Assembly (NCBI GenBank): GCA_016748015.1
Contig: JAAOMT010000710.1
Coordinates: 62,001-126,000, forward strand
From: Geosiphon pyriformis uo1
Taxonomy: Eukaryota; Fungi; Glomeromycota
Direction: 5' to 3'
Length of the DNA: 64,000 nucleotides
Shown here piece after piece: positions 10,080 to 62,932 of this stretch. Each line of letters starts with the position of its first letter. The stretch's first letter is position 1. The notes below the pieces were generated by a model that worked only from the letters and a program-made list of their open reading frames with translations, searched no databases and was not told the DNA's origin. Both the position numbers and the translations under genes were made by a program.

Positions 10080-11162
10080 TGTTACCCAAGTAAAAAAACC
10101 GATCCAAAGTTATGAAAAAACATAACCAAAACGTGACATAATACAGAATAATACGCAATAACGTTGAATAATGCATTATAACATAAGATAATGTGTTATA
10201 ATACAGGATAACACAGAATAGCACACAATAACATAGGATAACGTGTTATAATGCAGGATAACACAAAATAACATGTAATAATGTCAGATAACGTATTATA
10301 ACATAGAATAACTAGCAATAACATAGAAAAACAAAGCAATAACAGAAACAACAAAGCAATAGTTAGCAATAACAAGACAATTGAAAGCAATTCTGTAAAA
10401 CCAAAAGAATATATAAAAGCAAGTAGTTGTAGAAGTGAGAAAAAACAGACAGATAAATACGAACCTTTAGACAAGAATTAAATATCCATATCCCTTCATC
10501 CTTTATTATCTTCCCTATTTCATCTCCTGAAATAAACCAATTATTAAAAGAAATCAGAATCACAAATTCATGTTCTCAAACTTTGTAGAATTTACATAAA
10601 TTAACCCTTGTCTCATATCTCTATTCTAGGACAGATGCTCTTAGCATAACCGCCTTGAACCTATTAATGATTTGGACTAATTGCTCTTGATTACAGTGAT
10701 TGACGATACTAATTTATCTTTTTTCTCTTTCTTTTTCTTTTCTTTTTTCTTTTTCTTTCTTTTTCTGTCTATTTTGGTGGAGTGGCAACATAGTAAAATC
10801 AACTGTCTGAGAATAGATTTCGTGATAGCCTGGTAAAAGAGGGAAGCTCTCCCTAAGTTTTGGATATTAACATTATCTTGTTAGCTTACTAGAAGGGTGA
10901 AAAGACAACGCCAGACCCTAATGACTGTGCTCATTAGCTCAGAGAAGAAAACTCACATTTACGAAAAACGTTGCAATCAACAAAAGACAAACTCTGTGCC
11001 TTATAACCAAAAAACTCAATGGGTAAATTCACATCCAAGAATAGACCTTCAGAGACTGATAATCAAGACTAAAGCCAACAGAATTACACGGAAAATGCAT
11101 CATCAATAATTGAAAGCACCAAACGTTACCATTTCCCATACCCATTAAGTTTACCCATAACA
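10080..11162 (+). repeat. Element A 5' LTR (1083 bp)
   Basis: Direct repeat of 29118-30199; U3 tandem array about 10130-10330; TATA-like TATATAAAAG about 10410. Confidence 0.95.
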
Positions 11163-11181
11163 TTTAGTGCTCCCTGTGAGA
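11163..11181 (+). promoter_or_regulatory. Primer binding site of A (TT-T[G>A]GTGCTCCCTGTGAG)
   Basis: Directly follows the LTR; same motif in D and E; resembles the complement of the 3' end of elongator Met or Ile(UAU) tRNA (identity unverified). Confidence 0.8.
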
Positions 11182-11224
11182 TTATAAATCCACAGAGACA
11201 GAGCACCCCCAAAAATACATAAAA

Positions 11225-14200
11225 GTGGCGACTATTGGAACAATAGGAAAGAACCACTCCTCGTACAGAAAAGCACTATTTCAATATTTTCAAAAAGACC
11301 TAGGAATACCAGTAGAAACTACTTACGCAGAAAATAATTTTTGTAACTATATCAATGCAAAAATCAACTGCTTGTTAGGCCACACAACTGATACAGGAAG
11401 ACTTGGAAAACAAATCTATCAAAGCTTACTAGGATACTCAACAGCCACGACTACCCAAGCAATTGCTGAAACTCTGTGTATAATCGATATAGACATTAAA
11501 TATTACGTGGCACAACAATTCTCTCAAGTACAACAACCAGTGGAATCCAACTCTGAAGAATACGAAAACAAATCCAACAATCCTGTAACTGCTTAAGCCA
11601 AGTTCATGGTCAACAAAAAACCAAGAGTCCTCTTCTCAACAACTCCATCATACTATCAGACATCCCAAAGTAGAATTGTATTCAACCCACTCCTGGAAAC
11701 CCAGTCAGAAACACCACAAACTCCTGGAAATCCACATCCTTGGAATCAACACAGTTGGACCAAATCACTAGAAGAATATAAATCACTGTTTAGAAATCTT
11801 ACCCCAGCAGACGGTCAAACAGAAAGAAATCCGTCAACTTGAAAACAGCCACCAGCACAAAACCTAGCAGAATCAGCATCTCCTCTGATAGAAGAAACAG
11901 CTATCTTACAACTTATTGGTTCAAGTGACAAAGGAAAGCAACCAGCATTAGCACCCGGAGAACACTCGAATACGTGAACACCAATCCCTTTAAACATAAC
12001 CAGTAACACCCTACTCATTAACTAGATCATGGCTTACCGGAATATCACTAAATTAGAAAAATTTTCTGGTGAAGAAGATAATGCATATTCTTGGATCGTG
12101 GACGCCGAGAAAGCAATTACCGCTAATGGTTGGAATGACGATTACACAATTTAGGCACTACTGTTCTTTCTGACCAGAACTGCCGATTTATGGTATCAGA
12201 GCCTAGCAGAGAAGCCTACCTCCTTTACCAAGTTTAAACTCGCATTTCTACAATACTTCTGTGACCCCAATACGTTAATTCAATTGCAGAATCAATTCAG
12301 CATAATTAAACAAAAAGATCATAAAGCAGTAACTACTTATCTCGAATGATTTAATCAAATCCTGCGTCAAATATTAACTATTGAAAGGGACTACTACACC
12401 ACAGTGCAAGTTCTTAATCAATTCATTAAAGAATTGTGGAATGGTATTCTAAGATCCATAAGACCCTGCCATCCGACCAGTTTACAAAATGCCGTCGCTC
12501 TCGTTTGCGATTTTGAGTCTGCAGAACAAGAAGCAAACCATACCCAAGCTGTTAATTTAGCCATTAATGGAACCTCTGACATTGATGCAAAGATAACCCA
12601 ATTGAGTGAGAAACTAACTCAGAAAATTGAGGGATTCTTAGCCGGAACTACAGGAACTTACCAACCACCCCAATGGAAAGAAAATAACAACAACAGCAGA
12701 TACTCACAGCAACAGAACTGTCAGCAACAGCAACAACCTTGAAAATCCGATCCCCACAACTGTTACTACTGCCAGAAACCTGGACACATTGCCTGTGACT
12801 GCAGAAGGAAGATCATGGACCAAAATCAAGGAAACTCATACCAGCAATCCAGATATCAGCAAAACATGATACCCCAATATTTTATATCTCAGAATCAACT
12901 ACCCCTATATGCACAACAAGTCCCGTATACTCAACCACCACCCCAGAATTATTATCAACTACCACCAATGACACAAGCAATCCCTCACTATCAAACTTCC
13001 CCTTACAGCCCATCCAGACCTCGAGCTATAGACTATAATCAGGAATGGAAGAATCCCAACAACAATTAGGTACAAACCAACAGTAGACCATCTCGACCAA
13101 TCCCTCACAGTCCTGTCCAATCTCGACCAACACTAACTGGATACCCGAATCAAGCTTTCTATTTCAGTCTTATGGAAGACCAGAGTTTTGATAAATCTAC
13201 ACCTGTAGAAGGGGGGGATATAGAACAAATCTTTCAACCTTCCAAGCAAACAAAAAGCAATATCTCATCAGCCACTATTACTGAAGACACCATTCTAGCC
13301 ACCATATTTTCTTTTGACATCAATAATTTGAATACCCATAGCCTTTTTAGTGGAGCAGCCATCAATCAGGATAAACCAATAATGGCCCTATACACTAATA
13401 CCAGAGTTGGAAGAATAGACATTAAATTAATCTTAGATAGTGGATCAGCTGGTAGCATAATCACGAAGCAGCTCATGGACCAACTAGGTCACCGAGTAGA
13501 CCGTGCTGCTACCATCCAGATTATTACAGCGGATGGAAACACAAAACCCCAATAGGAGAAATTGACAACTTCCCCTTCGAGATTAATGGAATCCAAATCT
13601 CTACCAAAGTACTCATCATAGAAGCTACTCAATATTAAGCTCTAGTAGGAAACAACTGGTTGTCAAAAATCAATGCTACTCTCAACTGGAACACCCAAGA
13701 ACTTCAACTTACGTTTAACGAATAGCATGCCTGAGTTCCAGCTACATATGGACACTTTAAAACCCAATGTACCGAGGAACCCCTTATTAAATTCAAAGAC
13801 ACATCAATGCCACCAACTATCAAGACCTATCAGGTTTCATGGGTGGATAATTATCGAATTGAACTACCTCTACCACCAACCTGGGAAGAAAAAGGAAAAG
13901 GCAGAGCCAAAGAAGAACCCCAATCGTCATCACTAGAATACGTAACCTCGGACCAAAAAAACTTATTTTACCAACCCCCAAGACTAATATGTGTTGATTG
14001 TGGAAAAAAACTATTCACTATGGGCACATGTATTGGGAACAACAAAGAATGGCCCATCACCACTAAATACTATTGCAGACTTTGTTTACTGGAAAAATTT
14101 GGACAACTAAAACAACAAGGCAAGTGAAACAACATATCATGCCTTACATATGGCAAAATCTTGCCAGATGAAGGACTTTGGAATGATGTGCCTGGCAAAG

Positions 14201-16085
14201 GAGGAACATGCGACAAGGCTTGTCAATACACCATATTAATCAACGATTGGGTACAAAAGGGAACCTCCATCAAGGATGCTTGGAAATGAGCCCTCAACAG
14301 ACTGGACAGTTATCCACATGATGACCACAAAATCTGGAGAATGACAAGCACCAAGGCTGAAGGCACCATGTCCAAAGAAATATGAGAAATCAAGAACAAC
14401 TCTTGGATGCCCAAATATGATAGACCCAACTATTCCGAAAATGATTTCTTTACAGATGACCCAGACACATTTCAGAACTGATATCAGGAATTGGCCCCAA
14501 CTCATAAAGAACAGGAGCAAAGATTGGCCAATTTAAATACCAAACTGTGCGATCACTGTTTGATCCCCTGTTACTTCCAGTACTGTAACAAATGTGATCT
14601 CATGTTCAATCCATCTCCAAGAATACTGTTTCTAATCACTGAACTACTTGAGCCCAAAAAAGAAGTATTAATCACCGAGAACATGTTGTTTCAAGATCCA
14701 ACTGAGAATACCAAAACAGAACAATATCTCGTGTATTCCAACCTATCCAAAAAACTAGAGCTAAAATGGTATAGTGACAATGAAGAAGGAATCTGCCCTG
14801 AAAAAGTGCATGACACCAATGCTGGTTTCGATCTACGATACTCCAGATAATTACCCATTATTATAGCCCCACATTCCTTTGTAAAAATAGATCTTAAGAT
14901 AGTGTTAGAAATTCTTGTTAGTACAATGGTACAAGTTGTCTCTCGATCTAGTCTAGCCAAAAAAGGAATCGACATAAAAGGAAAAATCATCAATGCTGGT
15001 TACATGGGAAACATTATTGTGATGCTACAGAACAATTCGAACAGACCCTATAAAATAGAATCACAAGAAAAAATTGCCCAAGCTATCTTCCTACCCCTAG
15101 TCAAAATACTCCAATTAACTCCAATAACAACTTGAGAAAAGTTAGGCCTCACTGCCTGAGAAATCAATGGGTTTGGATTAAGTGGAAGAGAAAACATACC
15201 AGTTAATTTCTCGGAGGAAGACAGTGACCAGGTAGAATTTATCAACACTGACACCATTATCTCCATTCCCCTATACTGACAATACATCCTCAAGATAAAT
15301 CAAAAGATTCAAGATCAAGCCCTGTTATTCGAAGCCAGTCCCAAAATCTGTTCTCTAGCCAATGTTGCTAATCTATACCTACCAGCCAAAGCTCATAAAC
15401 ACTTCAAAATCTCTATCCACAACTTGACAAAAAATGTCATTGAAATCTCCGAAAGGACCCTCATTGGTTCTATATCTGCAGATATTCAGAATTCTGAAAA
15501 AACCCAGTTTATTCCAAATTTTGCACAATTATTCTTATTCTGTGACATTACTTCACAAGTATGGAATTTCCCAAAAGAAAGTTACTTGTTCACACCAGAG
15601 GAGATCAATAAATTGAATTTAGGAAATTTAAGTATACTGCAACAAATACAACTCAAAGTCCTTCTAAATCAGTATGTTGATGTCTTTGCCAGTGAAAATG
15701 AGTTCGGATGCACTGATATTGTGAAGCATCAGATTGATACGGGAGACGCTCGACCGATTAAGCAATGAGTTTACCGCATACCCCCATCTGGCAATAACCT
15801 AATTAAGCAAAAAGTGTAATGGATGCTTAATAACAGCCTAATCAAAGAATTGTTAAGCCTTTGGTTCTCTCCAGTAGTCTTGGTCACCAAGAAAAACGGA
15901 AAAGTGCAATTCTGTGTAAATTATCGAAAACTAAAATAGCATCATGCGAGGAGATAGTTATTCCACTCCTCTCATCCAGGAAATTCTGGACAATCTAGGG
16001 AAAAAGAAATGGTTCTTGTTATTAGATTTAGCAAGTGGTTACTGGCAAGTTGAAATGAACCCCAAAGACAAAGGAAAAACAGTAT
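11225..16085 (+). pseudogene. Element A gag-pol, 5' part (gag, CCHC, protease, Cys-rich domain, dUTPase, start of RT)
   Basis: KLEKFSGEED capsid start, CYYCQKPGHIACDC, LILDSGS protease, AGFDL/SRSSLA/KIAQ dUTPase motifs, LDLASGYWQV; many stops. Confidence 0.93.
14790..15185 (+). pseudogene. dUTPase domain in element A pol
   Basis: Motifs AGFDL, SRSS, IINAGYMG, KIAQ, GFG. Confidence 0.9.
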
Positions 16086-17066
16086 TGTTACCAGACAAAA
16101 TTAGAGATATTGTTTAGCATGAAATTACCTTTATAAATTTTATCATTAATTAGCATATATTATTGTTTTAAATTATCACTTATTACATTAGCAAAATGTC
16201 CGAAATTATCATTTAATTAATAACTCAATTTGCACATAACACAAATATAACCTAAGTGCAATAATCAAATCATACAATACCCCGAAATATGTAACATTCA
16301 AAAGTTTGCCAAAATTTGTAGAAATTTGCTGAAATAATTGATAGTTCACCAAAATATCTAATAGTTCGCAGAAATAACTTGTAGTTTGCCGAAATGTATC
16401 TTTAGTTCAGTAAAATTGTAGAAAAAAAGCAAAGTTCAAGTTCATAGAATAGTGTTACAACAAGTTGTATAAAAGAAGAGCTTCTCTCTTCGAAAAAATA
16501 TATCTTACTTTAGATTTATTACTTAGAACTATTTCTACACACACAAAAAAAAATAAATATCAAATAATTTGAAAAACCAAATTCTTTAATTATTGCACTT
16601 GGAAGATTCTCAAAACCCAACTAATGTTTTGAAATTGATTAGCTACCAATTTCAGTAAACTGTTAGTGACTCCAGGCCTGGATAGAAAACGTTTCCCTTA
16701 ACAGAATTCTATTTCTTTTACATTTCTTTTATTTTTTTTTTCTTTTCTTATTACAATCATTAGGGTAGCCTACAGACAAGATTCCTGTAGAAAAATTGAC
16801 TTTCACAGCAAAGTAACTACACATTTTTAGTGAGCTTCCAGATGAGCAATTCCTGGAAAAAAGTTGACATTTACTACAATGTAACTATATAAAGTAACTG
16901 GCAAAGAATTGGCCATTCCACTTATAAGCCCAGTAGTTCAAATTATAGGAGATAATTTGAAAATAAATTCAGTTACTGGAGGTTCAACTACTTCCTGGAA
17001 ATGTGAATTCACAGCAAATCAACATCAACAATATTCAAGAAAAGAGACCAAAAACCTCCGGTAACA
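16086..17066 (+). repeat. Element B 5' LTR (981 bp)
   Basis: TGTTACC...GGTAACA; direct repeat of 24998-25977. Confidence 0.95.
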
Positions 17067-17111
17067 TTTGGTGCTCTCCCACAAAAATAACACAGCAACA
17101 ACAAATTCAAA

Positions 17112-20100
17112 GTGGCAACCACATCAGACACAACAACTCTAGAGTATTACCAGTCAATTTACACCCACTGCAAGCAAATATTCAACATTCCAGACAGAAT
17201 TGAAGTTGTCAAGAAATCAGTATACCAATACATTGAAAACCGCATCAACAATTATTTTTTTGAAAACTACAATATCTCAGAAGTTAGAAGCAATCTTTAC
17301 AATAATTTAGCACACTATTCACAGTTGAGAACTGAAGACCTTAACAGTGAAACACTTGCCACTTACTTTTAAGAACTTAATTTTAACATTATCAAGTACT
17401 GTGAAGAAACATATCTAGTGCAGTCTTAATACTCTATTGATTTTGAATTAGAAACAGAAACAAGCAACAAAGGCAAACACAATTTGAAACAATACTCAAA
17501 AACCATCCCAAATACTCCAATACTACCAAAGACAACTGCCAAACACTTACAAACACCTGAACAAGGAACCAGTTCAAAACTCCCACTTACTATTACACCT
17601 TTTTCAGCTTTATTTGTACAAGCACAAACACCTAATTCACTCTTGAATTGATTTGCAAGACCAGAAGATTTTACATTACTCAGAAGTCCCACCAGACAGC
17701 AAGAACTCCTTCAAACTAGTTCCAATCTTCTTGACTTTCTAGCTGAAAATCAAAGTGAACACTCTGAGACAGCAATGAATAAAGAAAACAACTCTGAAAT
17801 AACTGAAGAGGAATCAATAGACAGTGAAAACAAAGAAGACAAAATGACAACATACATTGCAAAAATCTCTGAATTCAATGGAGAAAACATTGAGACCAGT
17901 CCCCAAGAATGGCTTGACCAAGTTACTAAAGCTGAAGATGCAAATGGATGGAATGCTGCCAGAATGTTAAGAACAATTCCCTACTTTCTCAAAAGAACAG
18001 CAGGAGAATAATTTAAAAACTTGGCTGCTCTATTCAATGATTGGGACACTTTCAAAGCAGTCTTCCTTAAACAGTTCACTAACAATAATACCTTTATCAC
18101 TCTTCGAAATCGGTTTCACAATATCAAACAAGAATCCTCCGAATTTGTTATGACTTATATTGGGAAATTCAACAAACTTCTCAGACAAATTCGCCAACTT
18201 GAAACTAATGATTATTATTCCAATGCTCAAATCTTGGATCAATTTATTGCTGGTTTAAAAAATAAACTGATTAAAAAGGTTTACCCACATGCCCTAGAAG
18301 ATTTAAATTCTGCCATTCAGCATGCAAAGAGATATAAAATGGCCATGGAAGAAGCCAATTGTACAAAACTCATGAACTTAGCCATTGAAGAAACCAGCTC
18401 AGCAGCTGAAGAGAAAATTGACCAACTTGTAAAAAAAGTCGAAAACTATTTCATCAACCAACAACAACAGCAACCCCAAAGATATCAACCACCAAAAACA
18501 GAATCAAAACAACTTCACATCACCTTCTAATAACCAGTCTCAGAGTTGCCATTACTATGAAATTCCTGGCCACTGGAAAAGAGATTGCAGAAAGCTACAA
18601 CAAGACCAACAAAATAGAAGTAATCAACATTACTCTCCACCACAGCAATCTTATTATCAACCACCACCACCAGCCTACTATCTACCAAGACCCCAATATC
18701 AAAGTAACTATTATCAGCCTGTTCCACAGCCAATCCAACAGCAATACCAACAACCATCCACACAACATTATCAAGTGTCTGCTCGAAGATTAATCCCACA
18801 AAATCAATTTACACCACAAAACTGATACCAAGTAAACAACAATAGAATTAATTCGAATAACCAATTAGTTCCCTGAAATTCAGCTCAGCCAAGACCCACT
18901 CATTATCATACTCAACCTAGCTATCTTATAATACCTGAAGAACAGGATTTTCACCATACTACACCCTTGGAAGATAGAACTGCAGCATGACAACAAAACC
19001 CTTTCTATACTCCTACCACAATTCCACCAGCCAGAATTGCTGAAAATGCCAACCTCTCAGACATATTCCCTTTTGAGTTTGAAGCAAATGAGTCACTATT
19101 TCTGCTTAGCAATGTGGCCACCAATGAACAAAAAGCAATTACTGCTATGTACACTGAAACAGAAGTCAAAAGAAAGGCAATTTGCTTGATCCTAGACAAT
19201 GGATCTACCAGAAGCATTATCACCTACCAGTTAATACAACAGTTAAAGAGAAATGTTGACTGACCAGCTCAAACAGTAATCGTTACTGCCAATGGCATGA
19301 AAAAGATTCCAGTAGGAGAAATTGACAATTTTCTATTCACTCTTGATGGAATTACCATTCCAGTCAAAGTTTTTGTAATAGATGTGCCCCAGTACCAAGC
19401 TCTTGTTGGAAATGATTGGCTTTAAAAAGCCAATGCTAATCTGAATTGGGAGACACAAGAGTTAAAAATCTCCTATCAAGAACAACACGCCCAGGTACCT
19501 GCCACTTGTAGTACATTCAACAAATGCTCCGAAAAAGCCCCAGTTTTTGAATTCGAACTAGAAGAAGAAAAGCCCATCATTGAAACATTTATGGCACTTG
19601 GATCAACCTCCAATTGGGCCAATGAAACTGAACAACAGTATTTTTCAACAAATGATTCTTCTGAAACAAAAGAACTAGTGACAACCGGATGGAATGTCCC
19701 CTATTCAAAACCAGAAGCATGAAAACAATGCCCCTATATTCCACTCAAATGCAAGGACTGCCACAAGAAACTCTCATCAATGGGAGCCTGCATTTTACCT
19801 GAAGAAGAATATAAAAATCATACTTGTTATTACTGCAAGGCTTGCTATAGAGAATGATAGGGCCATCTAATAAAAAGAAGTGGAAAATAGGATAACACTC
19901 TTTGTTTGACTTGTGGAGATATGCTATTGGAAGAATGCAATTGGATTGATATAGCAATGAGAGGGGAAGTCTGCGATCAAACCTGCCAATATGCTTTATC
20001 AATTTCAGAAAAAGTAAAAAGAGGAACACCCTTTAATGCAGCATACAACAGTGCTCTCAACAAACTTTATCACTACTCCCATGATGCTGAAATGATTTTT

Positions 20101-22721
20101 GACCTAGCAATAGCATTAATTAATAGAGCTACCAAAGAAGATGTCCGTCAAATAAAGAAAGCAAAATACATTAAATACATCATGGAATTAGCTGGATTCG
20201 ATTATGAAGATGAAGTAGAAGTCTACCACCAAATTGCAAGTCACATCTACTCAACTCAAGAAGCTCAAATTCAATGATTAGAGCAAATAAATATTAGGTT
20301 ATGTAAAGAATGCATTATGCCTTGTAATGAACAGTGGTGTCCTGAATGCTATGCTCTTAGCATTCTTCTGCTCAGTAAAAACAATGAGAACGAAATTGAA
20401 TTTGAAGAACCTGAAGCAACGAAAAAAATTGAAACAACACCCATCTATCTTGTTGAAAATCAGCCTGTCTTATAACTCAAATACTTTAACAACAATGGAC
20501 AAGGAATCAAACTCGAAAAAGCACACGAAATTGATGCTAGATATGACCTAAGATATTCAGACAAGAATACTCTTGTTCTCAAACCCAAATTTCTCACAAA
20601 AATCAATCTCAAAATTGCACCCGAAATCCCACCAGGAGCAATGGTTCAAATTGTCTCCTGGTCTTTTCTGGCAAGCAAAGAAATCAATGTTAGAGGAGGA
20701 ATAATCAATGGTGGATATACTGGAGACATTACAGTGATGTTTCAAAATGAAACTGACAAACCATTCAAAATCAAACATGCTGAAAAAATTGCCCAAGCTA
20801 TTTACTTACCCCTAATCAACATTTTGGGTTTGCAACTAGTCAATCAAAGAGAACAATTAGGAAAAAACAATAAAAAAACCCAAGATTTTGGTTCAACTGG
20901 ACAATTCACAATTCCAGTTAATATAGCTCTTAACACACAGAACAAATCCCACCAGATTCTTAGACTTCCACAACCAATTATTATCTTACCCTTTGAAGAA
21001 CATCCAGAAATCTACATCTGCCCAAAGCCAACAACCACACAACAAATTTTTGAGTCCAATGAACAAGTCTGCTTGGAACATAATATTTTGATCCCAAACA
21101 TTTATATTCCAGAAGGAACAAAGAAAGTCCAAGTTACTTTTTACAATCCCAATAATTACTCCATAGTTTTATTAAATAATTTAGATATCAGAGTTATTCA
21201 CAGTAATATATTTCAGCAAGAATTACCTCAAACAGTCCCCGATTTTTCTGAAATTATTGGACATTCACTACCAAAAATCAACCCAAACCCCAGCTCTGAA
21301 AACTACCATGTTGTTATGGAAAAACTATTTTGAATCAACATGGAACAACTTGAACCACAACAACAAAACCAGCTCAAAGAGCTAATTGCAGAATTTGCTG
21401 ATATCTTTGCCAAAAACAACAATGACTTAGGAAAAACCGATTTGGTTCAACATTAAATCTACACAGGAGATGCTAAACTGAGATGACAACAAGCCTACTG
21501 AGTTGCTCCAAAAAGCCACCAATTTATCCAAGAAGAAGTACAACAAATGCCTCCATGAGTCCTTGGGCTTCACCTGTAGTGCTAATTAAAAAGAAAAATA
21601 GAAAAATACAATTTTGTGTTGACTATTGACAACTCAACAATGTTACAATTAGAGATGCCTACCCTCTTCCCCAAATTGATGACATGTTAGATGCCCTTGG
21701 AAAATCCAAATATTTTTCAATACTAGATTTAGAAAGCGGTTACTGGCAAGTTGCTATGGATCTCAAAGATCGCCCCAAAACAGCATTTACCACCCAAGGC
21801 AGAAATTACGAGTTCAACATAATGCCTTTCGGATTATGTAATGTACCAGCAATGTTTCAGAGATTAATGGATGTTGTGTACCAAGGACTCTTTTGGAAGT
21901 CAGTAGTCGTTTATCTTAATGATACTGATGTTTATTCTTTATCATTCGAATTACACTTAAAACACCTGTGAAAAGTTTTTCAATAATTATGAAAAGCAGG
22001 ACTAAAACTCAACATTGAAAAATGCTACTTTAAAAAAACAAGCTTGGCCTTTCTTGGTTATATTGTTAGTAAAGATGGAATCAAACCAGACTCTGGAAAA
22101 ATCAGTGCTGTCAAAAACTTCAAAACTCCTCGAAACACTACAGAACTAAGAGGATTCATAGGATTAGCCTCCTACTATCGGAAGTTTATTAAAAAATTCT
22201 CAGAAATTGCAAAACCTTTCAACCAGCTTACCACTAAAAATGTCAAATACAAATAGATTACTGAATGCCAAAATGCATTTAAAATCCTCAAAAAAAAACT
22301 AACAACAGCTTCAATTCTCACCTACCCAGATTTCAGCAACCAATTCTGATTAGCAACAGATACATCTTATACTGCCTTTGGTACTATCCTATCACAACTG
22401 GATGACAATGGAAATGAGCAAGTAATTGCCTATACTAGCAGAACATTAAAACCAGCTGAAAAAAATTATTCTGCCACTGAATTGGAAACAGCAGCTGTAA
22501 TTTGGGCCCTATATCATTTCAACCTTTATCTCCGGCCAAAGAAATTCGATATTATCACTGATAATATTGGACTCAAATAGCTTCAAAACAAAAATACTCA
22601 GCTAAATGCAAAACAAACCTGATGGACAGGATTTCTAGCAAACTATCGATACATAGTACATTACAAACCAGGAAAACTCCACACCAATGTTAACTGTTTC
22701 TCCAGAATGAGACAAGATTAG
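17112..22721 (+). pseudogene. Element B gag-pol (gag, protease, Cys-rich domain, dUTPase, RT, RNase H)
   Basis: YIAKISEFNGE, LILDNGS, GGIINGGYTG/KIAQ/DFGSTG, LDLESGYWQV, MPFGL, VVYLND, ends SRMRQD*. Confidence 0.93.
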
Positions 22722-22772
22722 AAAACACAAAAACCAACACTCAACTTAACCAACCAAAACAGCCAACAAACA

Positions 22773-26910: not shown

Positions 26911-26920
26911 TCCCAAATCC

Positions 26921-43609: not shown

Positions 43610-43613
43610 ACAC

Positions 43614-49900: not shown

Positions 49901-50132
49901 AGAACACTTAATTATCTATTGGGCTGTCATCAAATGGAAAAAATACTTGAGTCAAAAGTTTGATGTGTACACTGATCATAAAGGATTGACTTCAATTCAG
50001 AAGCAAGAATTTGGAAACAATCACCATGCCAGATAGAAAATAGAACTTTTACTATTTAATTATAAAGTACATTACAAAAAAGGAAAAAAAAATAGAAATG
50101 CTAATGGATTGTTGCAAATAAGACAAATCTAA
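43921..50132 (+). pseudogene. Element D gag-pol, heavily decayed
   Basis: KLEKFIGEKD, CHNCGKQ, LILNS, Cys-rich block, VGFDL dUTPase (about 47900-48295), MPFGL, TTDAS, ends RQI*. Confidence 0.92.
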
Positions 50133-51619: not shown

Positions 51620-51633
51620 TTATCTCCTTCTTT

Positions 51634-52255
51634 TTAATATTGAGCTCTATCGAAATCTTCATTTTAAATTAATTCTAATACTTCTTTTTCAAGTATTGTT
51701 TGTTCGACTCTGTTCTTCACGTCTTCTACTTATGTATTGTTCATTCTTTTTCATTGGTTAATGGTTATGATTTCCATGTCAGAATGTAACAGTATTTCTG
51801 GATAGTTCTGAAATATGCTGTATTTTAACATGTAGTGTTGAATTCATTTTCTTTCTGATGAATTCTTTAATTTGTTGTATTATGTCTTGGTTAAATATTC
51901 TCTTGAATTTTTCGATATACAACTCTTAAATATTCAACTTTTGATCTAACTAGTAGTAGCAATATGATATTGAAAGTTGTTTTGTCCATTGCTTCTAATT
52001 CTTCTTTGTAAATTCTTCTGTTGGTGCCATAATAAGTATTTTCCCAAAAGTGTTTTTCACTTTTTCTATTAAGTTATCTGTTCAGTTTTTTTCATTCTTT
52101 GATAACCGCTAATATGGTGTGTTCTTTGTCTTTTTTTTGATGTTTTAATAGCAAATTGTTTGGTTGTTAACAATAATTTCTATGTTTAACAATTGTTGAC
52201 TTAAGGCTTGGAACAGTTGTTAAGCTATAGTGTAAATATGATCTGGTATTTCCAT
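51634..52255 (-). pseudogene. Element E ORF3
   Basis: MEIPDHIYTIA*QLFQAL...IEIIVNNQTI to DFDRAQY*. Confidence 0.75.
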
Positions 52256-52310
52256 TTTTCTTGGTTGCTTTTGTTGCATGTACTGTGTCTTTATATACTC
52301 TTTTGTTTGT

Positions 52311-53676
52311 TCAATTTGATGTGTTTGATTCAATAACTATGATTGGTTCCAGATCTTGTAGAATCTCATCTGGTTGGACTAGTATTTTTTGTACTCCCAG
52401 TTGTGGAATGTTATTGGTAGATGATGATACTGTCTGGTAATATTGTTTTAGTTAATCATTATGTGCTGTTTTGACTAAGATTTTGTTGTCCCATCTTAAT
52501 TTATAAGCTTCATTTCTAAGAATTTCTTCTATGTGAAATGGTCCGTTCCATTTGGGGTCAAATTTTTTATTCCATTGTTTTTCTGCTTTGGTACAATGTA
52601 AAAGTACTTTGTCTCCAATCTTGAATTCAACTGGTTTATCTGGTAGTTGGCTATTGTGTCTTTCTTTTTGTTTCTCTTGTAACTTTTGAATGTTATTAGC
52701 TGCTTTCCATTGTCTGTTTTCTAGTGTTTCTATTAAGTCATATGTTCTTCTCAACAATGTTTCTTGGAAATTGGCTTCTGTTATTGGTTTAGTTGGATAT
52801 GTATTGACTTCTATCTCAACTGGTAATGTTGCTGTTCTACCATATACTAATTCAAATAGTATTGCTTATGTAGTGTCTTGCTTCATTGTCCAATAAGCAA
52901 ATAGTACTGATAGTATAACCAAATCCCATTTATCCTGGTTTTCCTGACTGATCTTAGCAATTGCTTCACACAGTGTTCTATTAAATCTTTCTACTAATCC
53001 ATTGGTTTATGGATGATATGGTAATAATAATGGTCTTTTTATTTCAAATCTTTGACTTAATTCTGTCAATGTTCTGTTTATAAAATGAGTTTCTTGATCT
53101 GATAGTAGTTCTTTTGGACATCCATATTGACAAATCAAATCTTGATAAACAAATTCAGCAACTGATTTTGCATCTGCTCTTTGAATGGCTTTTGCTTCTG
53201 GCCATTTAGTGAGATAGTCCATGACTACTGCAATATATCTGTTGCCTCTGCTAGTAATTTTTAATGGCTCTACTAAGTTAATTCCAATGCAATCAAATGG
53301 TTGTCTCACTTTGATTGGCCTTAATGGTTCCCTGGGTCTTGTTCCTTCTCTCCTCTGGCAAGCATCACAATTTTGGACATATTGAATGATGTCTGGATAC
53401 ATTGATGGCCAATAGTATCTTTTTCTAGTTCTTTCCATGGTTGCTTCTTTATAAAAATGTCCTGCTGTTAAATCTGAATGCATGTTGAATAATATTGTCT
53501 CTTTCTCTGGTTGGTTAATCTGAATTTCTTCTGTTCTTTTGATAAAGTATGTTTTGATGGTTGATAAAATATTTTGATTGTTGTTTTATGTTCTTTTGTT
53601 CTTTTTGAGATAATTTCTCATTAAACAGTTGGGTATTTAAATAATGTTGGAGTTGTTAGTATTTTTGTATATTCAT
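52311..53676 (-). pseudogene. Element E integrase (separate ORF)
   Basis: MNIQKY start; ORFs 53007-53483 and 52452-52757 with HHCC, DYLTKWPEA, KWNGPF. Confidence 0.9.
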
Positions 53677-53706
53677 CTTTTACTATATTTTTGGGTTGAA
53701 ATGGTT

Positions 53707-56700
53707 TTAAATTTGTCTTATTTGTGACAAACTGTTGGCATTTCCATTGTCTTTTCCCTTTTTATAATGTACTGTATAATTGAATAGTGAGAGTTCTATT
53801 TTCTATCTGGCATGGTAATCATCTTCAAATTCTTGCTTCTGAATTGAAGTCAATCCTTTGTAATCAGTATATATATCAAACTTTTGGCTTAAGTATTCTC
53901 TCCACTTAATGACAGCCCAATAGATTGCTAAATATTCCAGTGCTGGTGTTCCATAGTTTTTTTTGGCTGGACTTAAGCTTCTACTGGCATAAGCTACTGA
54001 ATGTTCTCTTCCATCTGGTCTTTTCTGTGATAGTACTGCTTCCAATGCTTCACCTGATGCATTAGTAGTGATAATGAATGGCTTGCTATAATTCAGATAG
54101 ATCAGTATTGAAGCCTGAATAAGCTTTCTTCTTAGTGTATTAAAAGCTTTTTGCTGTGTTTCTGTCTATTTATATTTGGTGTTCTTTGCTTGGAGCTGAT
54201 GTAGTGGTTGAGCTATTTTAGAAAAGTCTTTGATAAAATGGTGGTAGTATCCAGCAAATCCCAAGAATGCTCTCAATTTTGTAATATTATTTGGTACTAA
54301 AAAGTTTTTTACAATCGCAATTTTGTCTGGATCTGTTTTGATTCCATTTTTGTTCACCACATGTCCCAAAAACTTGAGCTCAGTTTTTCCAAAGAAACAT
54401 TTGGTTGTGTTTAGTTTCAATCCAGCTCTTCTTAATCTTTCGAACACTTGTTGGAGATGATGTAAATGATCATTAAATGTTTTTGAGAACACATTGGTGT
54501 CATCTAAGTATATGACTACTGATTTCTATAGTAATACAGTATAGACAATTTCCATGAGTCATTGGAATGTTGCTGGAGCATTTATTAAGCCAAATGGCAT
54601 AACTTCAAATTCAAAGTTCCCTTCTTTTGTTGTGAATGCTGTCTTTTCTTTGTCAGCTAAATCCATAGTTACTTGCCAGTAACTACTGTTTAGATCTAAT
54701 GTTGAGAACCATTTATTTCCTCCAAAGGCTTCAAATAGTTCTTGAATTTTTGGAGTTGGATAGCTATCACCTTTGGTTACTCTATTTAGTTTTCAATAAT
54801 CCACACAGAACTGGATCTTTCTATTCTTCTTCTGAACTAGTACTACTGGTGACGATTATAGACTTATTGATGGTTGAATTAGCTTATTGTCAAGCATTTA
54901 ATTGATTTCCTAATGAATAATCTCATGGCTGGCTGGTGGTACTCTGTACACTCTTTGTTTAATTGACATTGCATCTTCAGTTTTGATCTAATGCTAGATG
55001 ATGTTGGTGCGGCCAAATTTATTTTTGCTTGCAAAGATGTCATTAAAATTGCTGAGTAACATCTTTAGTTACATTTGTTGAAGTGGGTCTAGATTCCCCA
55101 TATTTATCTGTTTCAATTGTTCTGGTTGGAGCAGATAACATTCACTTTGTCTATATATAGTCTGTGATATAATATTCACAAAGCTGTGAAAAGTCTGAAA
55201 TGTGGTTCAGTAATTGCTCCTCAACTTTAGTGGTTAAATATCCAATGATGGTTCTCTTTGGTATTTCGATGACATTTTTCATTGTGTTGTAGATGGGAAT
55301 TTTTATATTTTTGGGGTTCTTGGCTGATATGTAGAGATTAGTAAGTCCAATCTCTCCTGATTCACAAATAGTAGCTTCTGCTTCAAACAACTGAGCTTAA
55401 TTCTTTACTTCTCTTTTTATGGCTAACATATATTGATTATATGGTAAAATAGAAATTGTTTAACAGTTTGAGATAATTTCTCCTTTGTCAATAACCTCTT
55501 TTTCCACCATATTAACTAGTATATCTATTCTATTTATTGATCCGAATCTCTGTATCTTTCTAGCTGTGATCCCTAATTCTTTTCTGTTTCCCACTGACAC
55601 TAACTGAGCTACTTTCACCAGAGGTAGGAATATTGTCTGTGCTATCTTTTTGTTTGGATCTATGGTATATGTTTTTTCTGAGTCATTTTGTAGCATAGTA
55701 ATGATATTTTCTATGTATTTTGTGTCAATTATTCCTCCTCTGATGTTGATTCCTCTTTTTGCTAAACTACTCCTGGATGCTAATTGAACCATAGTTGTTG
55801 CTGGAATTTCCAGTGCTATTTTCAAATCAATGCAAGTGCATAAATGTGGTTCTAATTTGATGGAATCTTTCTCCAAATATCTCAGATCAAATCCTGCATC
55901 AGTATCATGCATGCATTTAGACATGATATCTTCATTATTATCACTGAACCATTTTAGTTCTTGTTCCTTGGTGAAGTTGGGCAGTGCAATATATTGTTCA
56001 GAGTTTGAATTGAAGTTTGAATCTGGGTTAAAATCATTGTTGTTCTGAATGAAGCTAGAACCATTATTTTTATCATTATTGTCAGAGTTTGAATTGGGAT
56101 TGAAAATCAATTCCAATTCTGACGCACAGCTGCTCATTGGTTCGTCTTCCTCTGGAATTGTGTAGATTATGCATAGTAGTGGATTGTAAATGAGGTCATA
56201 CTCATTACAATATTGAAAGTCACAGGAAATTAAACAATAGTCACATAGTCAAGTGTTGATTTCTTCCAACCATTGCTCTTATTTCTCTTTAGTGGATGCT
56301 AATTCCTGATAATGTTTGTGGAATTCTTCTGGATTTAGAAGATATATAACTGGTTTTGGGTCCCAGTCTAATTCTATGGGTTCAGGTGGATTATCTTTAA
56401 TTGTTTTTATTTCTTCTGGTGATGCTCCTTTAATTTTGGCGAGTGCCATTCACCAGATTTTGTTATCATTATGTAGACATCTATCTAAACGTTTGATGGC
56501 TTATCTCTAGGCAGCATCTATGGGCATTCTTTTTCTCACCCAGTCACTTATGAGAATCATGTATTGACACAATTTGTTGTACGTTCCTTCTTACCCAAAA
56601 ATGTTATTCCACATTCTTTTGTCCAGAAGAGTTTTTCTACAAGCTAAGCATGGTTTATTGTCCCATTTTTCAACCCATTTTGGTCTTCCAAAGTGTTCAA

Positions 56701-59700
56701 TGATGCATAGACGGCAGTAGAATTTTGTTGCCGAAGTGTATTCCTCATCATTACTACAACAAGCATCTATTGATGACAATTTCTTGCCACAATCAACACA
56801 TACCAGTTTTGGGTGGCAATAAGCAGATCGTTGGGGTGTAAGATAGGAATTATAAGTGGGGTTGCTGTTAGGTGTTGGTTCTTCTTCCTTTTTTTTTCCT
56901 TTTTCCTTTTTGTTTTCCTTCCATTCCCAGTTTATTAATTCTTCCTGGTCATTGTCAATTTCCCAGACTTGGTTGGCTTTCCAGATAAGTTCTTCTTTCT
57001 GTTTTCCTTTGCTGTTGTCATTCCATGAAAGTACTGGCAGCAGCTTGTTGTGTTTGGAATTGGCCCAGGAAACTTGGTAGGCTTCCCAAATAGGTTTCAT
57101 CTCTTCTTCCTTGAATTCGATAAGTGGGGTTGTCAAGTTGGTGGTCTTGAAATGGCCACACATGACTGGTACACGTGTGTATTGACCATTCTGGCTGAGC
57201 TGTAATTCTTGCATATTCCAGTTGAGCACAGCATTTGTCTTGACTAACCAGTCATTACCAACTAATGCTTAGTATTGAGTTGCTTTTATCACTAGGACTT
57301 TGATGGGAATGATGATACTATTGTTAAAAGGGAAGTCATTAATCTTACCAATGGGAGTCTTGGTTACTCCATTGGTGGTTATAATTCTGGCATTGGCAGT
57401 GCAATCAACTCAGTAACTTAATTGGTCCATGAGTTGTCTTGTAATAATGCTGCCAGTTGATTCACTATCTAGAATCAGTTTGATAGCATGGCCATCAACT
57501 TTTGTGTCAGTATACATGGCGGTGATCAGTTTGGTGTCAAGAACAGCTCCACTAAATAATGGTGTGGTTGATGGTTCTTTAAGTTGAAATAGAAAGATGA
57601 CATCTAAGGATTTGTTTTCGGTGATAGTAGCTAGTGGAATGTTACTGGTGAGTAATTGTTTTTGGTTGGTTTCTGGATTATTGGATGGCACGTCTTTTGG
57701 AATAACCAGAAAACTTAAATAGTTCTGGAAATTCGGGTTTTGGGTGTACCCGGTGCCTGAATTTTGTTGTCAAAATCCTGCTGGTTGTGTGGAAAAACTG
57801 AGGATCAGTTGGTGGACTACTATTGACAATTTCCAGCTTTGTTGGGTTAATCTTGGCCTTTGGGTTCTGTTTTGAGGTAAGTTCTGTGGCAGTATTTGAA
57901 TTTGTTGGGGCTGATAGATTATCTGAGGCTGCAGTTGATAAATGGATTGTGATTATGGCTGATAAATTGCTGGTATTGTTGGCTGATAAATTGGCATTTG
58001 ATATATCAGTAGTTAATAAAGTGGCTGCTATGTCATAGATAAGTAATTCTGATAATATGGCTCTGAGTTTGGAGGATTATTCAGAATTTGAAACTGGTGA
58101 TTGGGGTTTTGATATTGATTTTCCAATCATTGGTTATTTAAGCAATAACAGCAATCGATTTGTAGGTGTCCTTGTTTACCACAATAATGGCAAACACGCA
58201 TTTCCTGTTGCCACTGTTGATTGGTCAACAATGATGAACATAACTGATTCTAAAAATGATTTGTGTTTCCAGAATTATTGCATCATTGTGGTGGTTAATA
58301 AATTGCACAATTGTCAGCTAAGTACCTTTCAAGCTTCTGATTAATTGAATCACTGAATTGTTTCAATTTGGAATCCAATTCAAATGATCCATTCATTACT
58401 AAATTAACAGCTTAGGCATAATTAGCTTCAAGTTCAGCAGCTTCAAAATCTCTGGCATTGGTGACAGCTGCTTGTAGATTAACAGGATGTATTGGATGTA
58501 TGTGTTGCAAAATGCTACTATATAATTTGCGAATAAATTAATTTAGGATCTGGGCCACTGTGAAATAATTGGCGTTGATGGCTTAAATCTGGTGCAGATT
58601 CCTGTGGAAGCATCTTAAGTAAGTGGTAACTGCTTCTGTTTCTCCTTGTTTAATGGTGGTGAAGATATTTGCCAGCCTGTTAATGCTGTTATTATTACTG
58701 AAGTATCTCAAGAACTCAGTTTTGAATGTATTGAAATCTTGAGGTTTGTTGACCAAGCTTTAGTACTATGAGTTGGCCATGTTCTAAAGAAAATATGGAA
58801 TGGCTTGCATGGCTCTGGTGTCATTCCATCTATTAGCCACGATGACTTTTTCTATGTCATTCAGCCATACTTAGGTGTCATCTTCTTTGCTGGTGAATTT
58901 TTTGATTTTGGCAATTGGTGCATATGTCATTTGTTGTGGCTGTTAAAACAGCTGCTGTGGTTGTTAAGATGGTTGATGTAGTTGTTGGAAGGGTTGTTGA
59001 AGTGGCTGATCGATGATAATTATTGGAGGTAAGTTTTGCTGCTTAATTGTTTCGGAGTTTGTATTGTTCGGATTTGGCAGATTTTAAAAATTCGGAGTTT
59101 CAATTTCTGAGTTTTCAGTGATTGAGTTCTAGTAAATAAATTCTTGATCTTCAGATTTTTTTTCCTCTTCTTTTTGTTCTCCTTCTGATTCCATTACTTC
59201 TCAGGAACTCGTGGTTCCAAAATCTGGTTAAGGTAGCAGAGATCAAAATCCTGATGGCATTGGCAATCATGACTTAAATCCTTCGAAATACGTGCTGTAT
59301 GGTCCTAGGAGATCTTCTTTCCTTTGTTTACTGTGAAATATGAATTGTCCAAAGGTTGACATCACATTTGATGTGGCTGCGCCTGCTGATGTAATATTGA
59401 TGACACTTTCGGGTGTATAATGGTATGAGATTAGTTGGTAATTCAACTTTTGTTTTCTTCCAAGTGGATGGTTGTATTCTTTGAGATATTACTGCTGGCA
59501 TTTGTAGTTTTCCTTTGCCTTTGTTTGCATAGGTAATTGGATATCTTTGTTGAGTGTGAATTTCAATTTCTTTATTGATTTCAGTGAGGATTGCTGTAAA
59601 ATTATAGTTTGCTGGTAGACTAGTATTCTGGATTAATTTATTGTAGAAGTTTCCTCTGACCAAGTCAGTTTCTATGGGTACTCTTAGCAAATATGAGATT

Positions 59701-59837
59701 CTCTCATTGACGTAGAAATTGAAAGCTGATTCTGCTGATAAGTGATTGTTGGTTAATCCTAAATGCTGACAGTAGTGTTGGAATAAGAATTTTGCAAATC
59801 CTAAATAGTTTGTTCTTGTTTCTTCAGATTCTGCCAC
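53707..59837 (-). pseudogene. Element E gag-pol with Cys-rich domain and dUTPase
   Basis: LILDSES protease; DAGFDL, ASRSSLA, GGIIDTKY, KIAQ (about 55535-55930); RT YLDD; RNase H. Confidence 0.92.
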
Positions 59838-59900
59838 TGTTTGAATGGGTATTGTTGATGCTAGTTCTCTGTAGAATTATACTTCACAGAAAACACCAAA

Positions 59901-60742
59901 TGTTATAGGTGATTATTTGGGGTCTCAAAGCAAATAACAAATTCATAACTTGGTGCTTAATTGATATAAATGCTTGGGGATATCTGAAGGTGTTGTTTTA
60001 TTTGAAGGTTTTGTTGTGGAGTTTTTTGTATAATGAACAGAGATTCAACAGTAATGTAGTTGGTTGTTGAGTTGTTTTCTCAATTTTTGTCTTCAGCTTG
60101 GTGGCTGGTTTATTCTGACAGTTATGCTCTTTTGGTAAGCTATCTGTTAATATATATAATTCTACTCTTATTTCTGGGTCTTTTACCAGGTTGTCTATGA
60201 TGTCAATTACTTAGTGCTTTAATCCTTAATCAATTAGTATACAACAATAAAATCAAAGAAAAGAAAAAAAAGAAAATAAAAGAAAAATAAAGAAATGAGC
60301 CAAGGCAATGTACAAATTAATATTCGTCAATAGCCATAATCAAGAGCTATTGTTCCAGTGGAGTTAAGTAGCAATTACTATCAACATAAAATATTGATAG
60401 TGGAGAGTGGATTGAAATAACAAATAATTATTTATTGATATTAGTGATGTGAAAGATTTCTAACTAATGGATCTCTTTCTACTTCTAGCACTACTACTAT
60501 ATATACATAATTTGGGTTCTATGAAATTGCTCACATTCTCAAGTGATGTGCTATAATTTCTCAAGCAATGCTCACATTGCTGAGCAATGTGTCATATCTT
60601 CTAAACATTGCTCCACATTGCTGAGCAATGTGCCATGATTTCTAACATTGCTCCACATTGTTGAACAATGTGCTCATGTGCTAACTACTATTTGCTTATT
60701 GGTCTACTATTTTTTATATTTGTTTTCTTTTTATGAGTAACA
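59901..60742 (-). repeat. Element E 5' LTR (842 bp)
   Basis: TGTTACTCAT...TAACA on the minus strand; palindromic U3 repeats. Confidence 0.93.
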
Positions 60743-60746
60743 ACAG

Positions 60747-61364
60747 GATGAATAGGATTTGTTTATACCATCAGTATTATTTGCTTATCAGACAATAAAG
60801 CAAGACATTACACAAGCAACACCATTTGAATTAGTATATGGTAGAACAGCAACATTACCAGTTGAGATAGAAGTCAAAACATATCCAACAGAACTAATAA
60901 CAAAGGAGAATTTCCAAAAAACATTATTAAGAAGAACATATAACTTAATGGAGACATTAGAAAACACATGATGAAAAGCAGCTAATAACATACAAAAGTT
61001 ACAAAAAAAACAAAAAAAAAAACATGATAACCAATTATTAGAGAAACCAGTTGAATTCAAGATTGAAGACAAAGTATTTTTATATTATATCAAAGTAAAA
61101 AAACAATGGAGTGGAAAATTTGACCCCAAATGGGACAAACTATTTCATATAGAAGAAATTCTTAGAAATAGAGTTTATAAATTAAGGTTAAACAACAAAA
61201 GCTTAACCAAAGCAACACATGGTAATCGACTGAAACAATATTACCATATAGCATCATCATTCACCAGTAATATTCCACAATTAGGAGTACAAAGAATACT
61301 AGTCAAACCAAATGAGATTCTATAAGATCTAAAACCAATTATAATTATTGAACCAAACACATAA
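60747..61364 (+). pseudogene. Element D integrase, 3' part
   Basis: FIPSVLFAY, TPFELVYG, KFDPKWD, ends PIIIIEPNT*. Confidence 0.9.
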
Positions 61365-61422
61365 AATTGAACAACCAAAGAGTATATAAAGACATGGTAT
61401 ATGCGACAAAAAACAGCAAAAA

Positions 61423-62052
61423 AAGGAGATTACTGACAACATTCACTCACTAACACAACAACTCTTTTAACTAATCCAACAACAGAAAATAGAAATTACA
61501 ATCAACCAATAAACTATCAAATACACAAACACCATGAAAGAAATACAAGATAAAATATGGAGAAAAACAGGAAACACTGTTAACAAAATAATTGAAAAAG
61601 TAAAATTGGCAATAGAAACACAACCAAAAGTAACTCAATATCAAGAACTAACTATAGAAACTTGAAATTGGTAGAGACAACAATTTCCAAAAAACTTTTG
61701 TTACTTTTATTTGGAACAACACTTGAACATTCAAAACTTGTATATAGATAAAACAAAACAATTATTTAACACTACAATACTGCAACAATTGGAACAATTT
61801 GTGAGAGAGAACAATTTGATTACACAAGCAAAAGCCATTTATTGGCTATATACTGGATTTCAAGATTGACCAGAAATCTTACTCAATCCAAAAATAGACT
61901 CCATTACCATTAACCAAATAGAAAAAATATTCAATGCTTAATTCGAAGACTTACAAAACAAGATAACATAAGTAATTCTTAAAAAAAAAGTTCAAGAAAT
62001 TCTCAAAGATGAAGAATTAGAATTAAAAGATTTCAATGGAACTCAATATTAA
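61423..62052 (+). pseudogene. Element D ORF3
   Basis: Homologous to A and E ORF3; ends DFNGTQY* at the PPT; start codon eroded. Confidence 0.7.
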
Positions 62053-62066
62053 AAAAGAAGAAATAA

Positions 62067-62932
62067 TATTACTCATAGAATATAGGAAGTATATATTAAC
62101 ATAAATTAGCCAATCAGAAGTAACTGTAGTAAATGTAGAATTCTAGGATTCCTCTTAGAAAAATTGCAGAATTCCAAAAATTTCAGGATTCTCATACAAA
62201 GAATTGCAGAATTCCAGAATTCCAGAATTCCTCTCAAAGAAATTACAGGATTCCAGGAATTGCAGGATTCCAAAAATTCCAGGATTCCTGGTATAAAAAA
62301 TTGAGGAATTGAGGAATCTTGATTATGTATATATAGCAGTAGAGTTAAAAGTAGAAAAGACAGAATTGCTTAATTTAGATTTAATTTAAACAACCTTCCA
62401 AAATTCACAAATATTAATAAATAATTATCTAATATCTCAATCCACTCTTTACTATCAACACTTCATGTTGATAGTCTCAAATACTTAACCATGCTGGAAC
62501 AATAGCTCTTGATCACAGCTATTGATGGGATACTATCTAGTATTGCCTTAGCTTATTTTTATTTGTTTTATTTTATTTTCTTTTGTTATTTCTTTTGTTT
62601 TATTAACTTGATTATAAAGATTTACATGCAGAAGTACTAATGTCAGGATATAGCATTGGTAAAAGACTCAGAAATAAGGATAGACACTCAAGATTGAGAA
62701 TATCTTATCAGGAGGATTACTGGCCATTATGCTGAAAAAAAAATTGATAAAACTGTGGTTTTGGAAAGCTATGGATAAAACTATTAGTTAAATCTCTGTT
62801 CATTATACAAAGAACTCTACAACAACACCTTCAGATCAACCAAACCTTCAGATATTAACACCAGAATATTAATTAAGCACCAAGTTATGAGTTTGTTATT
62901 TGATTTGAGACTCCAAGTAAACACCTGTAACA
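62067..62932 (+). repeat. Element D 3' LTR (866 bp)
   Basis: Repeat of the split 5' LTR; ends CCTGTAACA. Confidence 0.93.

Follow-up and report, generated by a model that had tools for sequence, protein, structure and literature searches.

In long terminal repeat (LTR) retrotransposons and retroviruses, the integrase (IN) is taken to reach the particle as a part of Pol, and in canonical Ty3/gypsy elements (Metaviridae) it is encoded within pol. Here we describe five nested Ty3/gypsy elements, A to E, in which IN is encoded outside pol. They occupy much of a window of 64,000 nucleotides from the fungus Geosiphon pyriformis uo1 (assembly GCA_016748015.1, contig JAAOMT010000710.1, positions 62,001 to 126,000). 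Among the described systems, fungal elements carry one fused Gag-Pol open reading frame (ORF) or separate gag and pol, and some have additional ORFs of unknown function, as far as the accessible text of a survey goes (PMC2864245). Tuber Tmt1, Postia PosPlaTy3-5 and Phanerochaete elements, compared here by description only, place a dUTPase between protease (PR) and reverse transcriptase (RT) as A to E do, and a separate integrase is not mentioned in the accessible portions of the two sources (PMC2864245, PMC6431247). The rotifer elements Juno, Vesta and TelKA are alike in having a dUTPase in pol and a third ORF. According to the available part of their description (PMC5408684), however, IN lies in pol and the third ORFs encode env, transmembrane (TM), GDSL or DEDDy proteins, none of which is found in A to E; a pre-RT position of the dUTPase has been published for planarian elements too. 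Troyka, an LTR element of animal hosts with the same order of PR, RT, RNase H (RH) and IN, has 3-bp target site duplications (TSDs), CG..CG ends and IN within Gag-Pol in the accessible account (PMC12440569), as opposed to 4-bp TSDs and TG..CA ends here. Neither Troyka nor the Kuafuorterviruses fit as the identity of A to E.

Measured against the Ty3/gypsy plan, A to E are non-chromovirus members, which share TG..CA LTRs, 4-bp TSDs, a Ty3-type capsid, a CCHC knuckle, the PR-RT-RH-IN order and an IN with H2C2, rve and SH3 domains, but differ in having IN outside Pol, a GTG start and a third ORF (ORF3). The LTR-to-LTR multi-ORF plan with 4-bp TSDs, which a first-pass annotation of this DNA had proposed, was recovered in five of five elements by tblastn, Pfam and direct reading. 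We are highly confident of a three-gene architecture consisting of a gag-pol that ends at RNase H, a separate IN and ORF3. Our explanation of the window as a whole, to which we assign a probability of roughly 60%, is that it holds decayed nested copies of one lineage, whose Gag-Pol begins at GUG and ends at RNase H, whose IN would be made by ribosome restart and whose ORF3 is separate.

The position of the pol stop is the central observation. At an RT-RH identity among elements of 50-60% (D-E 77%), pol ends 3-4 codons past the RH end motif in all five, and a short spacer leads to the ATG of an IN ORF of 454-461 codons (Table 1). The spacers are C/A-rich with 0-7% G and have no predicted structure. 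Since the frame of IN relative to pol varies between the families, no single readthrough or frameshift fits. A leaky stop or frameshift bypass, by which an RT-RH-IN polyprotein would still be made at a low level, could draw on B and E, where IN is in frame with pol, and on the 2-nt difference between D and E within an A-rich run. Yet three frames are used over five families, the IN ATG stands at a homologous position in each, and extra in-frame stops lie in the spacers of E (two) and of an intact relative, L002 (one), which makes such a bypass very improbable. In C, most of IN had already been annotated as lost; the deletion also took the first half of ORF3, and loose contig ends at 42454 and 42460 indicate that sequence is present there in other C copies. 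No chromodomain was detected by Pfam in the IN of A and B, and A to E lie across a 100/100 branch from the group with the chromodomain-bearing Closterium protein P0016; a chromovirus identity was rejected.

The same ending recurs outside the window. Relatives were drawn from longer proteins matching the RT-RH of C (120 listed of 7,735 matches) and placed in a 204-row FastTree phylogeny (10 short rows dropped) and a 54-row IQ-TREE phylogeny, both composed without named reference elements. The five elements are monophyletic in RT-RH (100 in FastTree, 99/98 in IQ-TREE) and sit in an enclosing clade supported at 98 and 99/95, respectively. This clade contains 75 of the listed proteins, 74 of them without integrase: 50 end 12 or fewer residues past the RH motif, six extend for 13-35 residues and one is cut at the motif. 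Many of those ending at the motif belong to multi-member clusters of identical length, and clade clusters include Rhizophagus irregularis, R. clarus, Cetraspora pellucida and Funneliformis geosporum, all of them other Glomeromycotina (of 20 clusters checked, named fungi occurred in 5). Of the 138 gypsy loci that served as a control and whose RH end could be read, 130 continue for more than 30 codons. Moreover, the loci L002 and L011 are intact and split, with the stop followed by a separate ATG integrase ORF after spacers of 30 and ~74 nt; in a 160-row IN tree, no rows lie closer to the window integrases than theirs. Because the stop position is the same across five families and is joined by the trees, the relatives ending at the motif and the intact loci, the split is, judged from sequence comparison, inherited and not a product of decay. 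Scans of metagenomes and prokaryote genomes returned mostly ordinary fused gypsies, among which only L002, L011, L017 and L123 look split, L017 and L123 being ambiguous past the stop; scans of viral contigs gave four loci, none of them split, and no loci for the proteins P0385 or P0043. The 79 gypsy RT-RH loci found in prokaryotic assemblies (L085-L163) probably reflect eukaryotic contamination of bins, and L123 among them may be of the split type.

The state of the window copies raises the alternative that the post-RH stop is itself pseudogene decay and that these families really have an ordinary gag-pol in one piece. Stops and frameshifts are numerous in all five copies, and none is intact. 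The LTR pairs differ by 330 transitions and 8 transversions, decay turns C into T and G into A, the usual change is from CAA or CAG to a stop, and reads at the B junction do not settle the status of the B stop. Against this alternative stand the identical stop position in five families despite different spacers and frames, the 50 relatives that end at the motif and the intact loci L002 and L011, and we consider it the least probable of the readings weighed here, with next to no weight. Of 60 window-specific changes, 36 fall at CpG, 13 at CpA, 7 at CpT and 4 at CpC, and the observed/expected ratio of CpG ranges from 0.72 in C down to 0.08 in D, which suggests methylation-driven decay. LTR-based ages in the Geosiphon genome are probably inflated, since the decay consists almost purely of transitions.

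Upstream of the split, the order capsid-PR-Cys-rich-dUTPase-dUTPase-like-RT-RH was found in five of five elements by tblastn and Pfam; the Pfam families found in the elements are PF19259, PF03732, PF13975, PF00078, PF17917, PF17921 and PF00665, and the zinc-knuckle stretch of C is unmatched in B. Capsid and PR lie in one frame in A, C, D and E and are separated by one shift in B, with no common frameshift site. In other genomic copies of C, the codon at 39299, a TAG stop in the window, reads as sense (67,248 of 69,067 depth, run X1), and at the frameshift of C an additional base behind 39918 is carried by eight X1 contigs and an X2 contig; among the 40 of 221 read-variant rows listed for C, the stops at 41125 and 42322 do not appear. 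Geosiphon gene models also run through PR-Cys-dUTPase in a single frame, which is weaker evidence because such models can splice round stops.

Translation of this ORF probably starts at GUG, as several sequence features indicate. The motif [AC]A[AC]A-GTG-GC occurs 45-82 nt after the 5' LTR in all five elements, no ATG lies between LTR and GTG, and the alignable protein begins there. The same context is found in a sixth copy, a relic at 31204-33000. A decayed ATG is not the source of the GTG, because decay runs in the opposite sense, from G to A. Furthermore, in the P0032 cluster, an intact relative family of 1321 aa, residue 1 is V or M depending on the source and the next Met is at position 181, a disagreement that implies a non-ATG start for this family.

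In the proposed mechanism, a single Gag-Pol of ~1,870-2,070 codons would be begun at GUG and cleaved by the element's own protease, the Cys-rich domain being released between PR and dUTPase as a putative zinc-binding module. The dUTPase would keep uracil out of the cDNA. Integrase would come from the same RNA at a lower rate, with ribosomes either re-initiating or entering internally at the spacer of 10-51 nt, which is poor in G and has no predicted structure, and less IN than Gag would be produced. Instead of being cut from a long polyprotein, IN would enter the particle in trans via binding to RNA or Gag. That integrase is translated from full-length RNA is, on the sequence features named, an evenly balanced proposition. 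Its close rival keeps the architecture but has IN and ORF3 translated from separate subgenomic messages, which would arise by splicing from the 5' LTR or from internal promoters; it gains from spacers that show neither stop/start overlap nor a TGGGA motif. For rotifer LTR elements, the accessible part of PMC5408684 describes ORF3 expression from spliced messages, and family C appears to be spliced in its host, on the antisense strand at least (see below). However, there is no common splice acceptor, the spacers of A and C lack AG and none has a U-rich tract. Nor is a sense GT..AG joint found among the 15 joints listed, which is a weak argument as C lacks most of IN. We regard subgenomic IN messages as a serious contender of lower probability than restart.

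Several observations weigh against an inherited split decoded by ribosome restart. Re-initiation after an ORF of 5.6-6.2 kb is normally poor. Stop and start codons overlap in none of the five elements and are within 18 nt of each other only in A, and the TGGGA motif is absent from the 120 nt before the pol stop in all five decayed copies. Signals of viral-type termination-reinitiation are thus lacking, which lowers membership in that class and leaves room for other restart routes. As all five window copies are broken, the layout is read from decayed single copies and not from a family consensus. In B, the in-frame IN follows a spacer without a further stop; reads at this junction revert three of five internal IN stops in most copies, while the other two, the pol stop and the ATG have no variant row. 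Among the 75 clade proteins, 17 carry tails of 61-396 residues, with no integrase in the tail, and one clade protein, P0095 (1,530 aa), has gag, PR, RT, RH and IN fully fused, which may represent the ancestral state or a re-fusion. The grouping of the window integrases with L002 and L011 is weakly supported (78). Finally, gag and pol of L002 are in different frames, and a single Gag-Pol is therefore not clade-wide. Post-RH tails of 200-400 residues were seen in P0039, P0055, P0088, P0090, P0091, P0096 and P0106, two of which were scanned and gave no Pfam match.

These results bear on the earlier proposal that the full combination of features marks a distinct, possibly undescribed lineage. It stands insofar as the layout is inherited, the five elements are monophyletic and the split marks a large lineage of which we found no description. 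It fails insofar as the split is wider than the combination, since Rhizophagus, Funneliformis and Cetraspora elements lack the dUTPase and the Cys-rich domain. The elements are an inherited variant of the gypsy plan, in which the PR-dUTPase-RT order and the dUTPase-like domain are not special; this window contributes the host, a start at GTG, the Cys-rich domain, splicing on the antisense strand and an ORF3 that is conserved but orphan. In a literature search whose scope excluded the repeat databases (Repbase, GyDB, REXdb), the Geosiphon genome paper and most subscription journals, we found neither a description of these Geosiphon families nor a gypsy element reported to have its integrase in a separate ORF, and Repbase may contain an entry of this layout. 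The comparison also took in accessible parts of PMC3248453, PMC2774666, PMC11673190 and bioRxiv 10.1101/2021.03.30.436303. Tentatively, and with less than even confidence, we propose an undescribed Metaviridae clade, Glomeromycotina-wide, in which IN would be made outside Pol by restart and packaged in trans, and whose Geosiphon branch would be regulated through GUG, zinc domain, dUTPase, ORF3 and antisense RNA. If true, a fungal element would be regulated in the style of a complex retrovirus while having no envelope. Where integrase is a gene of its own throughout a large lineage, the synthesis, dosage and packaging of the enzyme become questions, which reporters can address. In G. pyriformis, LTR sequence makes up 41.2% of the genome according to the accessible part of PMC11952901, a figure for all LTR sequence and not for the share of this lineage.

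The dUTPase is recognised in C by PF00692 (E 3e-25), and its recognisable motifs align in all five elements. As the first-pass annotation noted, the PR-dUTPase-RT order is already published for some fungal elements (accessible parts of PMC2864245 and PMC6431247). Among the matches listed, four clade relatives have a 46-48% identical dUTPase between PR and RT, P0110 has a more distant one located after RH, and P0084, P0094 and P0117 of the same clade carry NUDIX domains; dUTPase and NUDIX enzymes thus move in and out of the clade. The second, dUTPase-like domain aligned to dUTPase in hhalign with a probability of 94.5 (P 7.8e-8) when an enlarged profile minus one true dUTPase match was used, compared with P 0.34 and 0.66 for the controls and P 0.14 for the five window rows alone. 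By this profile comparison, it qualifies as a degenerate trimeric-type dUTPase. It had been counted among the marks of the lineage, a role it loses: an iterated profile found the same pre-RT domain in 83 other rows, nearly all of them ordinary fused gypsies, and it is thus old cargo. The Cys-rich domain comprises ~200 aa with 35-38% identity and seven invariant cysteines, including two CxxC pairs. All 32 longer proteins carrying it in a word-limited search are from Geosiphon. It has no notable Pfam or PDB sequence match and no Foldseek match; its model has a pLDDT of 58, a best VIA-align Z of 6.1 and an Atlas value of 0.81.

ORF3 encodes ~220-245 codons, begins 55-151 nt past the IN stop and is homologous across the five families. 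The Geosiphon model P0366 is a full C-type ORF3 with 96.6% identity over the C remnant. A search with the B ORF3 gave 199 matches, and among the 120 listed, 119 are hypothetical proteins of Geosiphon pyriformis and one is the window's own. Together with the Geosiphon origin of the Cys-rich proteins, these matches point to this Glomeromycotina fungus as the host of the elements. As at least 119 such "hypothetical proteins" are copies of ORF3, part of the Geosiphon orphan gene set is transposon, which affects annotation of this genome. An ORF3 profile had 101 matches among 1.84 billion representatives; the 10 examined were six Geosiphon and four metagenome proteins, and a resemblance to a common Rhizophagus hypothetical family was supported by no named match among these 10. 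Two full-length metagenome homologs, P0385 and P0393 (~30% identity), end in a motif read from polypurine tract (PPT) and LTR as in B, and for this reason probably represent the ORF3 of related elements from other hosts.

The first-pass annotation had called these genomes complex-retrovirus-like, which overstates the case. No hydrophobic or TM segment was found in the five ORF3 proteins (highest 19-residue Kyte-Doolittle mean 0.46-1.29), and no Pfam family, including GDSL/SGNH and DEDDy, was detected at E 0.05 in P0123, P0385 and P0393; hydropathy and the absence of a Pfam match rule out an envelope. The AlphaFold model is helical and of low confidence (mean pLDDT 57), without a Foldseek match at E 0.001 in PDB or BFVD and with a best VIA-align Z of 5.9. 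In Atlas, ORF3 had a first match of 0.91 at low recognition; a closterovirus coat row (0.89) was treated as chance. Blank searches for ORF3 and the Cys-rich domain do not show that these are new folds. The model leaves room for a speculative and rather unlikely role of ORF3 as a soluble, mostly helical accessory protein, which might regulate expression or counter host silencing.

A further feature of family C is a spliced antisense path, followed by contigs of runs X2 and X3, which come from two studies with the recorded types "DNA?" and "RNA?, probably DNA". Twelve segments of C are missing from these contigs, one of them 1,686 nt long and the other 11 of 68-167 nt. On the minus strand, 8 of the 12 joints have GT..AG borders (donors include GTAAGT and GTATGT), compared with 1.1% of random segments; none of the joints was present in X1 (14,825 contigs aligned to C). 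Most simply, these contigs derive from a C copy with less decay, whose antisense RNA was spliced and runs from the 3' end of the element back toward the primer-binding site (PBS). Alternatively, the contigs may stem from a processed DNA copy of family C rather than directly from RNA. The antisense copy may be regulatory or read-through noise, and on the window copy the path has no ATG ORF longer than 93 codons. A-runs at 40682 and 40715 were rejected as a poly(A) tail because they flank a genomic A run.

The five LTR pairs were identified by self-comparison of the window, and boundaries, termini and TSDs were read directly (Table 1). A carries B within its RT, and D holds two inserts: C in its 5' LTR and E, in inverted orientation, in its integrase. 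In every nesting, the LTR identity of the inner element is equal to or higher than that of its host, and C is the youngest element. One TSD is perfect, three have one mismatch and one has two; the 4-bp duplication puts the RT interrupted by B and the IN interrupted by E back in reading frame. LTR ends are of the TG..CA type, with some termini decayed to TA. The families had been described as mostly dissimilar in their LTRs with only D and E related, and indeed all pairs of the five score 24-77 in local alignment except D-E with 360. Without inserts, A, B, D and E measure 9.8-10.2 kb and C 7.7 kb owing to its deletion. TT-TGGTG or TT-TAGTG follows each LTR and a purine tract precedes every 3' LTR; no primer tRNA was matched, and a search for tRNA genes in the window found none.

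Table 1. Coordinates of the nested elements and their coding regions in the window.
Feature	Position	Strand	Details
Element A	10080-30199	+	~10.2 kb without B; LTRs 10080-11162 / 29118-30199, 89.7% identity; TSD ATAT/ACAT
A gag-pol	11225-26910	+	GTG to TAA; interrupted by B at 16086-25981; Cys-rich 13834-14493; dUTPase 14722-15192
A pol stop; IN ATG	26908; 26921		spacer 10 nt; IN frame relative to pol +1
A integrase ORF	26921-28288	+	own ATG; H2C2, rve, SH3
A ORF3	28369-29103	+	244 codons, internal stops
Element B	16086-25977	+	9.9 kb; LTRs 16086-17066 / 24998-25977, 93.4% identity; TSD GTAT/GCGT
B gag-pol	17112-22721	+	GTG to TAG
B pol stop; IN ATG	22719; 22773		spacer 51 nt; IN frame 0
B integrase ORF	22773-24158	+	same frame as pol
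B ORF3	24310-25029	+	open, 239 codons; runs through PPT into 3' LTR
Element C	35886-43609	+	LTRs 35886-36643 / 42744-43609, 98.2% identity; TSD ACAC/ACAC, perfect
C gag-pol	36726-42324	+	GTG to TAA; CCHC knuckle; Cys-rich 39302-39916; two N runs inside
C dUTPase; dUTPase-like	~40150-40599; 40600-40950	+	within C gag-pol
C pol stop; IN ATG	42322; 42354		spacer 29 nt; IN frame +2
C integrase start fused to 3' half of ORF3	42354-42730	+	deletion near 42455-42460
C spliced antisense path	36654-42640	-	contigs of runs X2, X3
Element D	35344-62932	+	~10.0 kb without C and E; 5' LTR 35344-43858 (C inside), 3' LTR 62067-62932, 89.8% identity; TSD GCAG/GTAG
D gag-pol	43921-50132	+	GTG to TAA
D pol stop; IN ATG	50130; 50165		spacer 32 nt; IN frame +2
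D integrase ORF	50165-61364	+	interrupted by E at 50924-60746
D ORF3	61423-62052	+	start codon decayed, start approximate
Element E	50924-60742	-	9.8 kb; 5' LTR 60742-59901, 3' LTR 51619-50924, ~90% identity; TSD CCAG/ACAG
E gag-pol	53707-59837	-	GTG to TAA
E pol stop; IN ATG	53709; 53676		spacer 30 nt; IN frame 0
E integrase ORF	52311-53676	-	same frame as pol
E ORF3	51634-52255	-	

The motif GA[GA]CTCA lies just 5' of the PPT in all five elements, at 29085 (A), 24972 (B), 42718 (C), 62038 (D) and 51645 (E). It is likely a cis signal, because it is common to the five yet read in another frame in B. The 3' LTR of E (51619 versus 60742) is short of ~150 bp at its start, where short tandem repeats occur. 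Placeholders of 20 N at 36170-36189, 37450-37469 and 41788-41807 all fall within element C, and the one in RT masks ~30 codons. The relic at 31204-33000 is an old, very AT-rich, B-like remnant that consists of an LTR and the start of gag and retains the motif AAAGTGGC. Upstream of element A, a decayed non-LTR retrotransposon on the plus strand (~2800-9400) contains RT and RNase H (Pfam PF00078 and PF00075) and resembles other Geosiphon models.

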